NCBI GenBank assembly: GCA_902539295.1 | Contig: CACBIM010000004.1 | Coordinates: 12,504 to 76,503, forward strand | Length of the DNA: 64,000 nucleotides | Source of the DNA: an uncultured SAR116 cluster alpha proteobacterium | Lineage (GTDB): Bacteria > Pseudomonadota > Alphaproteobacteria > Puniceispirillales > GCA-002684695 | Reading direction: 5' to 3' | Part shown: positions 40,571 to 55,266 of the stretch, in pieces | Layout of the letters: each line of letters begins with the position of its first letter | Numbering within the stretch: the stretch's first letter is position 1 | Position numbers and translations under genes: made by a program | Notes under the pieces: generated by a model | Seen by the model: the letters and a program-made list of their open reading frames with translations, nothing else | Database searches by the model: none | Told to the model about the DNA's origin: nothing

Positions 40571-40640
40571 GTGGGCACGACAAGGTTCGAACTTGTGCCC
40601 TCCCTCTACTATGTCAATGTTGTAGTATACCATATAATTC
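40571..40640 (-). pseudogene. Decayed tRNA-Val 3' fragment (old att scar)
   Basis: GTGGGCACGACAAGGTTCGAACTTGTG (40571-40597) is identical to the acceptor/T-arm of the tRNA-Val at 55192. The following ~40 nt align only loosely (CTAC-TATGTCAATGT-TGTAGT against CTAC-GATGTCAACGT-AGT). Confidence 0.75.
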
Positions 40641-40902
40641 AATTATATTAAAAATAATTGTGTGGTTTTAGTGTGCTTCTTATATTTTGTTTGTTCACAA
40701 TATAGTTTTTTAACATTAAAGCTATCTCTTCATTCTTATAATTCAAAGTCTTAACATCCACTAAAAGAAAAAATTTACATCTTTTTCTTTGTTCAGCCGC
40801 TTTTATGCAATAAAGACGAATATAAATTATTTATATATATTTTTAAAGAAACTTTAAATCACTGTATTTGTTAAGATAAACAATTGCAATTATTTAAAAA
40901 TA

Positions 40903-40977
40903 TGGTGGGCACGACAAGGTTCGAACTTGTGACCCCTACGATGTCAACGTAGTGCTCTACCACTGAGCTACGCGCAT
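40903..40977 (-). repeat. Near full-length tRNA-Val copy (distal att repeat; probably non-functional)
   Basis: 76 nt (40900-40975) match 55189-55264 with one mismatch (40962 A vs 55251 G, tRNA D-loop nt 16). The first two tRNA nucleotides read AT instead of GG, which breaks acceptor pairs 1:72 and 2:71. Confidence 0.85.
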
Positions 40978-41051
40978 CTCAAGCATTTCTGCCATTCCTA
41001 AAATTTATAACATACTTAAATAACTATGAAAAGACGTGTTTTTGAGCATTA

Positions 41052-41075
41052 GTGTGACTGAATTGTGACTGAATT
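41052..41075 (+). repeat. Tandem GTGACTGAATT motif; arm-type site candidate (int-distal end)
   Basis: GTGTGACTGAATTGTGACTGAATT. The first 20 nt match 55126-55145 at 19 of 20 positions. Confidence 0.7.
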
Positions 41076-41179
41076 AATTTTTCAAAAAAAATAAAGAATT
41101 TTAAAGTCATCAAATTGCCACTTTTATAAACAAAATCAAATCTATAAACATAATTCAAGGTTAATATATAAAATAACTT

Positions 41180-41908
41180 ATGGAGTGTTTTATTAGAAAG
41201 ATTTTAACTTTATGCCTTATACTGTTTACACTAAATAGTTGGGCTGGCACTTCTCAATTAATTGTTATTGATTGTCCAATCGGTGAGGGCAAAGCTGTTG
41301 GAAAAACTAGAACAAGTTATTCACAATTTAACACTGGTCTTGATTTTCTCCCAATAGGACCAGGTGCGTTTCCTGTTCCACCACCAGAATGTGAAGAAAA
41401 CGGTTTCTTTGTTTATAAGAAAAATTTTTCAAAAGATGAGGTTAAAAAATTAGAAAATTTCATTTTTTCAGACGATTATCAAAATCTGGTGAAGAATGAA
41501 AATGTATCGAGTTTTTTTAAACTAGCAAAAATCTATGAGTATATGGAATATCCAATCTTAGATTATTATGATCTTTATTTAGTTGACATATGGAAATTCG
41601 GAAAAGTTGAGAATTCAGAAGAATATAAAAAAACAGCAAACCAAATAATAAGTAAATATGAAAAAGTTATAGTAACAATTGGTTTATATCCTGATACCAG
41701 TAAACATTTGGTCTACATTAATTATCTTTTGGCTGAATTATATAGAAGGACAGGAGAATTTGAAAAAGCTGCAGAAAAAATTAAATGGGCATCAAAGAAT
41801 AATTATAATGATTTAGATGAGGAATTTATTGATTTTCAAAGATATCTTATAAACAAAAAAAATAGTAAATTTTATGTAATCAGACAAAGAAATGAAATCA
41901 TGAATTAA
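41180..41908 (+). CDS. Hypothetical exported protein
   Basis: 242 aa. Signal peptide MECFIRKILTLCLILFTLNSWAG and a TPR-like C-terminal helix pair (..YLLAELYRRTGEFEKAAEKIKWA..). Confidence 0.5.
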   Translation: MECFIRKILTLCLILFTLNSWAGTSQLIVIDCPIGEGKAVGKTRTSYSQFNTGLDFLPIGPGAFPVPPPECEENGFFVYKKNFSKDEVKKLENFIFSDDYQNLVKNENVSSFFKLAKIYEYMEYPILDYYDLYLVDIWKFGKVENSEEYKKTANQIISKYEKVIVTIGLYPDTSKHLVYINYLLAELYRRTGEFEKAAEKIKWASKNNYNDLDEEFIDFQRYLINKKNSKFYVIRQRNEIMN

Positions 41909-42003
41909 TTTTTTATCTATTTACCAAATACCACCAGTAAAAATAGTGAGACAAATATTGATATCAATTTAGTGATCTAAATTTCAAACACTAATTTCAA
42001 TAA

Positions 42004-53339: not shown

Positions 53340-53644
53340 AGAATTATAAAATTACAAAAGTGAAAAAGGAATTAAACAGACTTAGTAAAAAGAAAAATAA
53401 GTTTTAAAAATTTAATACTTTTGTTTACCTGGAATAACTCCTCTTACACCACCTCTTGGATTTGTAAGAACCTCAGAGTTTAAATCACCCGAGCACTGTG
53501 ATTATTTTGCAAACCGACTAAACAGACATAATCCAATTATTAATAAGTACGGTAAGCTTACGAAAATGAAAGCTTACTGCAACCATGAAAACAATCCTAC
53601 CACAGATCCACTTTAAAAACCTACCCATCATATTGGAGAACATC

Positions 53645-53998
53645 TTAAGAAAACCAACTAAAAAACCCTTTTTTCTTTTTTTCTTTTTTTACAGCAGCAT
53701 TCATCATCTTATCTTTAGTTATTTTTACTAGAGTTGCAGGATCGTCTGATTGCAAAATCTCAAACAACAACATTTTAGCGGCTTCTTTACTGCTAGGATT
53801 TGGATTATGATATGTAAATGCACTGCATAACTCATAAACAAACATACTATCTTCAAAATCAAGAGTTCTTAAGATAGAAGATATTTCCATAGCGTCTTGA
53901 ACAGTAATTTTACCCTCAATCACCAACTCTCCACTTAATGCGCCAACAGCTTCGCCAGCTTTAGTTAATCCATCAACAATTTTTTTTCCATCATTCAT
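53645..53998 (-). CDS. Hypothetical protein with Lys-rich tail
   Basis: 117 aa, helical, ending ..AAVKKEKKKKGFFSWFS. The first gene downstream of the integrase. Confidence 0.4.
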   Translation of the reverse strand: MNDGKKIVDGLTKAGEAVGALSGELVIEGKITVQDAMEISSILRTLDFEDSMFVYELCSAFTYHNPNPSSKEAAKMLLFEILQSDDPATLVKITKDKMMNAAVKKEKKKKGFFSWFS

Positions 53999-54122
53999 AT
54001 ATTATTTCCAAAGTTATATAAATTAAAACAAACCAAAAAACCTTTTCTTTTATTTTTTACATAGAAAGTAAAATTTCTACTATCCCAACCAGTGATCTCT
54101 TCTGCATTGGAAGCTAATTTTT

Positions 54123-55112
54123 TCATGGAATGCCTCCACTGCTCATAACAGATCGTACACGATCAAGCTGCCCATGTGAATACCTCATCAACATCGAAAG
54201 TGTCCTGTGTCCACTAAGCATTGCAACTTCGGGAACAGTCAGCCCCATTTCGAAAAATGATGATATTGCCTCATGGCGCAGATCATGGAAACGAACATTC
54301 TTCAAACCTGCTTTAAGTCTGATACGATCAAAGGCAAGTCGAACTGCATTGGAAGAAAGTGTAAACAACCTCCCCTCACCTTCGTTATGCAAGACAGACA
54401 ATTTTGAATAAAGATCATTAGCAATCGGTAAAGAGCGATAGTGACCATTCTTTGTTTTGTGGACTGTAAATACTTTATTTTTAAGGTCGATATCTTTCCA
54501 TTCAAGAGAGAGGATTTCACTGCGCCTGAGAGCAGTTCTCAATGCAATTAAAACAATCAAATAAATATCTTTTCTTCCCGTTTTAAGACACGTAGAGAGA
54601 AGTCTTTCTTGTTGTTTGGCCTGTAATCTTCTGATTGCTTTGAGCGGTTTTAACGGAATCCTGACGCGTTCCAGAAGTCCTTCTGGCACGTCCCAATCCC
54701 ACTCTCTTTTCGCAATATTAAGAGCATGCCTTAATACAAAAAACTGACGGTGAAGAGAAGATGGTTTGACAACTTTCAATCGTTCATCACGATAATGAGC
54801 AATATCTTGAACTGATAATTGTTCAAGTGATTTTTTTACCCAAACAAGCCTCAAAAAAGCTTTAACAACCCATCCGTCAGGATGGCCTTTTTCTTTTTTT
54901 GAAATAACGCAATTTTGATATTTTGTTAAAACCTCAGCTAAACTTTTTGGTTTGTATTTAAATAGAGGATTATCTTCTTTTAAAATGCGGGCTTCCTGCA
55001 TACATGCCCAGTGACGTGCTGATTGATGTGTCAAAAATGATTTTGAGAGAGACTGGTCTTTCAGGCGAATCTGTACCTGGTAGAGTTTATTTCGATAGCG
55101 TATTGATGCCAT
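54123..55112 (-). CDS. int: Tyrosine-type site-specific integrase
   Basis: 329 aa. C-terminal catalytic pattern ..ALRTALRRSEIL.. (Arg), ..HDLRHEAISSF.. (H-x-x-R) and ..GHRTLSMLMRYSH (His..Tyr). It lies directly next to the tRNA-Val 3' end. Confidence 0.9.
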   Translation of the reverse strand: MASIRYRNKLYQVQIRLKDQSLSKSFLTHQSARHWACMQEARILKEDNPLFKYKPKSLAEVLTKYQNCVISKKEKGHPDGWVVKAFLRLVWVKKSLEQLSVQDIAHYRDERLKVVKPSSLHRQFFVLRHALNIAKREWDWDVPEGLLERVRIPLKPLKAIRRLQAKQQERLLSTCLKTGRKDIYLIVLIALRTALRRSEILSLEWKDIDLKNKVFTVHKTKNGHYRSLPIANDLYSKLSVLHNEGEGRLFTLSSNAVRLAFDRIRLKAGLKNVRFHDLRHEAISSFFEMGLTVPEVAMLSGHRTLSMLMRYSHGQLDRVRSVMSSGGIP

Positions 55113-55125
55113 ACGTACACCTCCT

Positions 55126-55146
55126 GTGTGACTGATTTGTGACTGG
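55126..55146 (+). repeat. Tandem GTGACTG motif; arm-type site candidate (int-proximal end, in the int 5' region)
   Basis: GTGTGACTGATTTGTGACTGG lies 14 nt upstream of the int start codon and 45 nt from the tRNA. It matches 41052-41071 at 19 of 20 positions. Confidence 0.7.
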
Positions 55147-55191
55147 CGTTATGCTGGAGATGTTGTGATGCTCGCTATCCCTTATGGGATA

Positions 55192-55266
55192 TGGTGGGCA
55201 CGACAAGGTTCGAACTTGTGACCCCTACGATGTCAACGTAGTGCTCTACCGCTGAGCTACGCGCCC
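55192..55266 (-). tRNA. tRNA-Val (anticodon GAC)
   Basis: The reverse complement GGGCGCG-TA-GCTC-AGCGGTA-GAGC-A-CTACG-TTGACAT-CGTAG-GGGTC-ACAAG-TTCGAAC-CTTGT-CGTGCCC-A-CCA folds as a 75-nt cloverleaf with an intact acceptor stem. Confidence 0.9.

Follow-up and report, generated by a model that had tools for sequence, protein, structure and literature searches.

We analyzed a stretch of 64 kb from an uncultured alphaproteobacterium of the SAR116 cluster (contig CACBIM010000004.1 of assembly GCA_902539295.1). We call this whole stretch the window, and all positions are given in its coordinates. Beside its tRNA-Val(GAC) gene lies what is probably a 14.2-kb integrative genomic island, site-specifically integrated at this gene by recombination mediated by a tyrosine integrase (Int). 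The locus shows the features by which tRNA-linked islands are classically recognized: an adjoining tRNA, tRNA-derived direct repeats, an integrase next to the tRNA, and an empty site in relatives. The original prediction, made from the sequence of the window, had placed an intact tRNA-Val here with a tyrosine integrase just 3' of it, and ARAGORN, Rfam, and PF00589 agree with these assignments (Table 1). It had also described a 76-nucleotide (nt) direct repeat, which our repeat search recovered at 40900-40975 and 55189-55264, with one mismatch (99% identity) and a spacing of 14,289 bp.

These elements fit together in a simple scenario. An attP carrying an almost complete look-alike of tRNA-Val(GAC) would have recombined with the chromosomal tRNA-Val gene, rebuilding a working tRNA at the integrase end (attL) and leaving a 5'-defective copy at the far end (attR). 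The excised circle would measure 14,289 bp. With an intact int gene, near-perfect cores, and perfect copies of a paired motif at both ends (see below), the island appears to be structurally complete for excision. It could at best excise and re-integrate, since it has no replication, packaging, or conjugation genes, and its passage between cells would need vesicles, transducing particles, or a helper. The cargo may serve as an exchangeable set of genes for envelope and secreted proteins, through which strains come to differ in their cell surface or periplasm. Since an older, almost erased insertion is visible as a third tRNA remnant, the site seems to have been used repeatedly, with the locus growing by accretion.

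Attachment sites derived from tRNA-Val

The proximal tRNA-Val is 100% identical to the tRNA of three related loci: L001, a contig where the site is empty, and L006 and L085, where other elements occupy it. The distal copy, read on the minus strand, has AT instead of GG at nt 1-2, which turns the outermost pairs of the acceptor stem into A.C and U.C. From nt 3 to nt 75 it equals the proximal copy save for a T in place of a C in the D-loop. Both differences had been reported in the original prediction and are seen in our alignment. That prediction had also declared the distal copy non-functional. This is a fair deduction from an acceptor stem whose top is unable to pair, and the copy is probably not a working tRNA, although ARAGORN and Rfam both still call it one. 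The attL core is composite: its 5' part is chromosomal and its 3' part was supplied by the element. The first element-derived sequence is a hairpin directly 3' of the tRNA. L006, L008, and L089 share its core, CCCATAAGGG, and L088 has it with a single mismatch, whereas neither the empty site of L001 nor the subtype represented by L085 and L007 contains it.

The D-loop difference had been used to place the strand exchange 3' of nt 16. The difference is real, but the placement is weak because this single C/T base is polymorphic: T16 is found in L088 within the proximal, functional tRNA, which adjoins an integrase 95% identical to that of the window. Further clues come from the distal tRNA copy of L085, which is mismatched out to nt 60, and from the third remnant in the window, which is perfect only from nt 47 onward. 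Together they seem to point to the 3' half of the tRNA. We leave the crossover unplaced because the mismatch signals of the window, of L085, and of the third remnant disagree in detail.

The third tRNA-Val copy is decayed and ends about 30 nt upstream of the start codon of the open reading frame (ORF) encoding a SOUL-family protein. It consists of 27 nt that match tRNA nt 47-73 perfectly, preceded by a degraded anticodon arm and D-arm; in blastn it aligns over 61 nt at 80% identity and over 27 nt at 100%. We take it as the scar, i.e., the old attR, of an earlier integration. It went unmentioned in the original prediction, even though the start coordinate given there, 40571, coincides with it. 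The spacer between the distal and the third copies may be what is left of an earlier, collapsed element. Only its 18 nt next to the distal copy are similar to an L085/L007-type element at its integrase-side end, and the match measures 91 nt at 94.5% when these 18 nt are included. When the spacer was compared with an L085-type element for signs of such a collapse, longer local alignments did not rise above shuffled controls. Separately, an Rfam hit to HPnc0260 (45.5 bits, where 59 are needed) was dismissed as a tRNA-driven artefact: it lies antisense to the tRNA copy, and L006 gives the same hit at its tRNA.

The integrase and its putative arm-type sites

The integrase ORF begins 79 nt after tRNA-Val. 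It is not a pseudogene, which would have undermined the original prediction: the protein is full length relative to 40 homologues, and the catalytic residues R196, K221, H276, R279, H302, and Y311 are invariant in the 41-sequence alignment of the family. Its motifs align with those of HP1 Int (PDB 1aih), the closest solved catalytic domain, with an E-value of 6e-10. The gene is under purifying selection, with a dN/dS of 0.14 against the 95%-identical metagenome copy in L088.

We built an AlphaFold (AF2) model of the protein on the family alignment (pLDDT 90). It predicts an N-terminal domain made of three strands (residues 2-7, 10-17, and 20-26) and a helix (29-46). A linker connects it to a core-binding domain of helices, after which comes the catalytic domain. 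In Foldseek, full-length lambda Int (1z1b/1z1g) matched nearly the whole chain over about 350 columns, and Tn1549 Int matched the two C-terminal domains. Pfam calls no arm domain in the window integrase and gives only a weak Arm-DNA-bind_4 match in the homologue P0131. The predicted architecture is that of the heterobivalent lambda-Int type, in which the protein would bridge arm and core sites. In other bacteria, the family is found beside many different tRNAs. We sought second tRNA copies at its distant loci and found none within the fetched flanks. A scan of the IMG/VR viral contigs with the integrase matched only an unrelated integrase of 24% identity.

Arm sites had been assumed in the original prediction, and candidates for them can now be located at both ends of the island in the form of GTCACA-N5-GTCACA doublets, which had not been mentioned before. 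This motif has two matches in the 64 kb, on the same strand and one at each end of the island, where 0.10 are expected; none of 100 shuffled sequences reached two. The proximal doublet lies 14 nt before the ATG of int and extends into the AGGAG ribosome-binding site. The same position, 12-15 nt before the int start codon, is occupied by a doublet in 12 related loci whose integrases are as little as 33% identical to that of the window. The doublet-bearing members of 33-43% identity adjoin tRNA-Arg(CCG), tRNA-Pro(GGG), tRNA-Ser(GCT), and tRNA-Val(GAC). The distal doublet lies 75 nt upstream of the distal tRNA copy, and a second doublet in the same orientation also precedes the distal copies of L006 and L085. 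We propose that the doublets are arm-type Int sites. Our search of the literature found no description of a GTCACA doublet as an arm sequence.

The reconstructed attP would span about 235 bp in a lambda-like layout: a doublet, 75 nt, the 75-nt tRNA-like core, 48 nt, and the other doublet. The N-terminal domain of Int would bind the doublets and its C-terminal domains the tRNA-like core, forming a lambda-type intasome. The predicted attP junction reads ...GGAATGGCAGAAATGCTTGAG-AT-GCGCGTAGCTCAGTGGTAGAGC...GTGCCCACCA-TATCCCATAAGGGATAGCGAGC... and the predicted repaired attB reads ...CGAGTAATAATTA-GGGCGCGTAGCTCAG(C/T)GGTAGAGC...GTGCCCACCA-TATTTTTAAATAATTGCAATTG... The overlap of the proximal doublet with the ribosome-binding site makes it probable that Int is a repressor of int. 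The analogy is with KplE1 intS, where attL overlaps the int promoter and Int negatively autoregulates its own gene (PMC2951348).

The tRNA-Val locus in other genomes

To compare strains, we anchored the loci on the gene encoding FGase (N-formylglutamate amidohydrolase), the chromosomal flank at the tRNA end of the island. MnmC is on the same side, and the SOUL gene is the flank at the far end. These flanking genes assign the window to a marine alphaproteobacterium of low GC content (about 30%), and the relatives are single-cell genomes labelled SAR116 cluster and metagenome-assembled genomes labelled Rhodobacterales. Exact-sequence look-ups with the integrase and FGase of the window gave no hit. 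FGase is 96-98% identical in L001, L005, L006, and L085, and beyond the site L001, L006, and L085 all carry a SOUL gene of 73-81% identity. Empty-site variants, on whose existence the original prediction depended, are present among these relatives. The metagenome contigs L001 and L002, with an FGase 97% identical at the amino-acid level and 98% nucleotide identity over 1.9 kb, have the order FGase, tRNA-Val, a 110-amino-acid (aa) ORF, and SOUL, and the island is absent.

The occupied sites differ from one another. In L006, the single amplified genome (SAG) AG-891-F06 (FGase 97.5% identical, flanks 94-97% identical in nucleotides), two perfect full-length tRNA-Val copies 1,728 bp apart surround an integrase-less element of 1.7 kb. 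L085 (FGase 96%) has a 3.4-kb element with a 71-nt repeat and a distal tRNA copy that is 93% identical; its integrase, cut down to 270 aa, lacks the first catalytic Arg. L001 is the exact empty site of both, because the sequence past their distal copies is identical to the one that follows the single tRNA of L001. In L088, an integrase 95% identical to that of the window lies at the same tRNA and is joined directly to a homologue of window positions 49654-49931, skipping about 4.2 kb of the window cargo. L089 has a 73%-identical integrase at the same tRNA-Val. In the more distant L008 (FGase 63%), the integrase is 74% identical, and the cargo after it is of another kind and includes a D5-type primase-helicase (phrog DNA primase, 3e-109). 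Yet other content is found at the site in L004, whose right flank is 95.7% identical in nucleotides. From these comparisons, the tRNA-Val locus is a hot spot: in and near a single species it exists in at least six states, and the 14.2 kb of the window are one of them.

The two perfect tRNA-Val(GAC) genes of L006 lie at 8095-8169 and 9823-9897 and result from the insertion of the element. The repeat spans the whole tRNA in this genome, hence the two perfect genes, and L006 may be a case of tRNA gene duplication by a mobile element. Within the integrase-less element (8600-9100) there are two tandem units of about 261-266 nt that are 80-85% identical; each has a hairpin, GACAACCCCATAC...GTATGAGGTTGTC, with no Rfam match.

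The chromosome past SOUL also differs between strains (36460-39950 in the window against 3672-7160 in L006). In L006 and L085, a gene for an 870-aa methyl-accepting chemotaxis-type protein separates SOUL from a 128-aa ORF. The window lacks this protein and has instead a 551-aa amidohydrolase further left (37801-39456). SOUL, too, is less conserved than FGase, at about 80% identity against 96-98%. On the other side, the adjacency of tRNA-Val(GAC) and FGase is kept across many Rhodobacterales and other Alphaproteobacteria: in L010-L084 the tRNA matches at about 9720-9800 and FGase starts at 10001, placing the tRNA about 200-280 nt upstream.

Cargo genes and base composition

The cargo had been put at about 20 genes; we counted 16 ORFs in addition to the integrase. 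It had further been described as nearly all orphan exported or membrane proteins, which holds in part. A crude hydropathy scan found a signal-like or transmembrane segment in 12 of the 16 ORFs, but the C-terminal half of the 552-aa exported protein belongs to a family of at least 130 clusters: it matches 134 cluster representatives, several of which carry an LprI lysozyme-inhibitor domain. The TerB-like and LspA-like assignments have Pfam matches (2.6e-07 and 7.8e-10), whereas the SGNH assignment corresponds to a GDSL_2 match below the cutoff. The stated lack of phage structural, conjugation, and replication genes was borne out by scans with Pfam, PHROG, and NCBIfam. When PADLOC is added to these, the cargo proteins have no match to families of phage, conjugation, replication, or defence. 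Searching the first-fetched comparison loci with the cargo proteins by tblastn also gave no match.

The cargo appears to be modular in the population. A 132-aa cytoplasmic protein and the neighbouring Adhesin_E-like gene are found together in short Tara contigs at 94-95% identity, and the Tara contig L153 lacks positions 41976-43395 and the neighbouring 421-aa gene. In the same way, L088 lacks window positions 49932-54155. The GC content of the island is 26-33%, the same as in the flanks, and slightly higher, 37%, in the int region. Within the island, an ORF-free patch has a GC content of 42-50% against 14-25% on either side and is a candidate RNA. Its fold z-scores are weak (-1.5 for the minus and -2.3 for the plus strand), Rfam gives no match to it at E<=1, and none of the fetched loci contains a homologue. 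Adjoining this patch is a very basic 62-aa ORF with no family match (48177-48365, plus strand).

Table 1. Features of the island and of its chromosomal flanks in the window.
Feature	Position	Strand	Evidence
Tyrosine integrase, 329 aa, intact	54123-55112	-	PF00589 3e-27; phrog_1 integrase 2e-45
Intact tRNA-Val(GAC), attL core	55192-55266	-	ARAGORN; Rfam tRNA model 68.1 bits
Distal tRNA-Val(GAC) copy, attR core	40903-40977	-	ARAGORN; Rfam tRNA model 55.0 bits
Third tRNA-Val copy, decayed	40571-40643	-	Repeat search; blastn; alignment
Proximal GTCACA-N5-GTCACA doublet, proposed P' arm-type Int site and autoregulatory operator	55127-55143	-	Motif scan
Distal GTCACA-N5-GTCACA doublet, proposed P arm-type Int site	41053-41069	-	Motif scan
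Hairpin TATCCC-ATAA-GGGATA directly 3' of the tRNA	55176-55191	-	Read from sequence
Non-coding spacer between distal and third tRNA copies, ~260 bp	40644-40902		
FGase gene, chromosomal flank	55370-56215	+	PF05013 1e-51
SOUL haem-binding family gene, chromosomal flank	39953-40540	-	PF04832 6e-40
Cargo, 16 ORFs	41180-53998		Pfam, PHROG, PADLOC, NCBIfam scans
Adhesin_E-like	43414-43848	-	Pfam 1.8e-18
552-aa exported protein	44393-46051	-	C-terminal half related to LprI-containing family
TerB-like membrane protein, C-terminal membrane helices	46178-47179	+	Pfam 2.6e-07
GC-rich ORF-free patch, candidate RNA	48600-48950		Composition
GDSL/SGNH-like	49018-49629	-	GDSL_2 5e-05, below Pfam cutoff
LspA-like (Peptidase_A8)	51573-52136	+	Pfam 7.8e-10

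Alternative explanations

Several observations weigh against an island integrated by Int and able to leave its site. No excised circle, attP junction, or repaired attB of the window strain was found, no excisionase or other recombination directionality factor was recognized among the island genes, and a scan for sigma-70-like promoters and terminators between the tRNA and int found none. The binding of Int to the doublets and the position of the crossover are predictions. The sequence between the tRNA and SOUL differs between the empty-site contigs and the window; hence, the exact state of the window strain before the insertion is inferred rather than observed. As its GC content equals that of the flanks, the island bears no compositional sign of foreign origin. 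Finally, the 75-nt repeats could be substrates for RecA-dependent deletion, and some of the variation between strains therefore need not be mediated by Int.

Part of this evidence would suit an island that arrived by integration and is now a fixed relic, its integrase being kept through recency or through another role. This is a possibility that we take seriously while thinking it rather unlikely. In its favour, excisionase, replication, and transfer genes are missing along with any excised form, and the GC content is that of the host. Sibling elements are decaying at the same site (int is lost in L006 and damaged in L085), and the eroded third tRNA scar shows that elements die in place. Against this reading, Int is full length with all its catalytic residues and a low dN/dS, the repeat has a single mismatch in 76 nt, and both doublets are perfect. 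The near-identical integrase that accompanies different cargo in L088 suggests recent activity. On sequence alone, the element may be still active or already a fixed relic. We consider it unlikely that the island is a degenerate phage satellite or replicative tycheposon that lost its replication module and is still mobilized by a helper phage or by vesicles. Such a lifestyle is suggested only because relatives pair a homologous integrase with a D5/primase-helicase, as in L008 and in L086 (D5_N and DUF5906). It would have precedents, since the replication module of tycheposons is optional and "cryptic" integrase-only elements exist (bioRxiv 10.1101/2020.12.28.424599), while marine VEIMEs (virion-encapsidated integrative mobile elements) occur in Alphaproteobacteria, some of them without replication genes (PMC9618062). 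However, Pfam, PHROG, and NCBIfam reveal no primase, helicase, terS, capsid gene, or AlpA-type regulator in the island, its integrase has no close relative in the IMG/VR viral contigs, and no remnant of a primase gene was detected at the level of tblastn similarity among the fetched loci.

It is also conceivable that nothing here is mobile, and that an ancestral tandem duplication of tRNA-Val encloses a hypervariable spacer reshuffled by homologous recombination of one tRNA copy with the other. The two perfect full-length tRNA-Val genes of L006, repeats of 75 nt that are long enough for RecA-dependent exchange, and the variation of the chromosome past SOUL could all be read in this way. We nevertheless find it very improbable: single-tRNA contigs with exactly matching flanks exist in the same population (L001 against L006 and L085), all occupied variants have at one end an integrase or its remnant with a doublet in front and at the other end a doublet ahead of the distal copy, and the integrase family adjoins many different tRNAs elsewhere. 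An Int-integrated genomic island remains our preferred explanation. A far more ambitious one would see the island as an active, integrase-only cargo shuttle belonging to a new alphaproteobacterial branch of tycheposon-like elements. Its attP would contain an entire tRNA-Val gene, so that insertion could add a second working tRNA, as in L006, and the GTCACA doublet would be a code for recognition and autoregulation. The envelope cassettes would alter the cell surface as a protection from phages or grazers, possibly together with the GC-rich patch in the role of a new structured RNA. Taken as a whole, this combination is doubtful.

Other classes of elements were considered for the island and rejected. 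A prophage was rejected given that Pfam and PHROG scans of the island found no structural, lysis, or terminase genes, and an integrative conjugative or mobilizable element given that Pfam and NCBIfam gave no match to a relaxase, a coupling protein, or type IV secretion. Membership in the known phage satellites, be they phage-inducible chromosomal islands (PICI), P4-like elements, or VEIMEs, was set aside as the cargo has no PHROG match and no close relative is found in IMG/VR.

Comparison with known mobile elements

The closest parallels are the tycheposons and cryptic elements of Prochlorococcus and other marine bacteria (bioRxiv 10.1101/2020.12.28.424599), which share with the island a streamlined, low-GC marine host; we compared it with their published description. 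The layout is the same, with an inward-facing integrase beside a full-length tRNA, a copy of the tRNA at the other end, and degraded neighbours. In both cases, the same tRNA is reused, leaving partial tRNA scars and degraded elements, the cargo is unrelated to mobility, and the elements are rare and differ between closely related cells. The replication module, optional in the published definition, is absent from the window island and present in its relatives L008 and L086. There are also differences. The repeat of the island spans 73-75 nt of the tRNA, whereas about 40 nt are described for integrase attachment sites generally; its target is tRNA-Val(GAC) in an alphaproteobacterium; and its cargo encodes envelope and secreted proteins, mostly without assigned function, in place of nutrient-uptake operons.

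A second parallel is with the additive flexible genomic islands, such as fGI-2 of Methylophilaceae, where the last 20 bp of tRNA-Lys recur as a marker (PMC10872708). They have in common a tRNA-anchored hot spot, strain-variable content, and recurring tRNA-derived repeats. In contrast to these islands, the unit in the window is exactly delimited by an integrase, two doublets, and two cores, and an exact empty site is available. Phage satellites (PICI, P4-like elements, and marine VEIMEs; PMC9618062) resemble the island in their size of 10-20 kb, in their site-specific integrase, and in their presence in marine Alphaproteobacteria, and the relatives of the island carry a primase-helicase. They differ from it in that the window island lacks primase, terS, capsid-remodelling, and AlpA-type genes, and no virion-derived relatives were found.

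At the level of the recombination system, lambda, KplE1 intS (PMC2951348), and HP1 are similar in the three-domain integrase, predicted for the island, and in the arm-type repeats on both sides of the core, which the doublets of the island are proposed to be. As in KplE1, int is transcribed away from the tRNA and attL overlaps its upstream region. Unlike these systems, the window integrase is not surrounded by a phage, and no recombination directionality factor was recognized. The attP of HP1 also contains a whole tRNA sequence.

These comparisons lead us to conclude that the island is a real but fairly ordinary mobile genomic island, whose departures from the usual picture are modest: a repeat that covers nearly the whole tRNA (all of it in L006) and a GTCACA doublet at a position fixed across the family. 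Its value lies in showing, in a cleanly delimited case, how a tRNA hot spot builds up flexible gene content in a streamlined marine alphaproteobacterium that is uncultured; an exact empty site, several other occupants, and recognizable cis sites come with it. In Alphaproteobacteria, the doublet 12-15 nt before the start codon could help to find the ends of elements and to predict which integrases are autoregulated. Until functions are assigned to the cargo proteins, what the island can tell us about biology is limited.

Other tRNA-associated loci

Two other loci came to our attention. In L086 (11029-20978), an integrase of the family, 43% identical to that of the window, lies beside tRNA-Arg(CCG) and heads an island that encodes a D5-type primase (D5_N and DUF5906), a VRR-NUC nuclease, a UvrD helicase, an SNF2/Mrr protein, and an EH_Signature protein. 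This is likely a defence island.

In the window, the tRNA-Arg(TCT) gene (25493-25569, minus strand) has a perfect 32-nt copy of its 5' half (nt 1-32) at 26729-26760. This partial copy is located 1.16 kb upstream in the sense of the tRNA, with a similar short stretch upstream of it, and a 355-aa ORF without assigned function (25657-26724) starts 4 nt after it. The duplication breaks in the anticodon stem and is the mirror image of the usual repeat of a tRNA 3' end.

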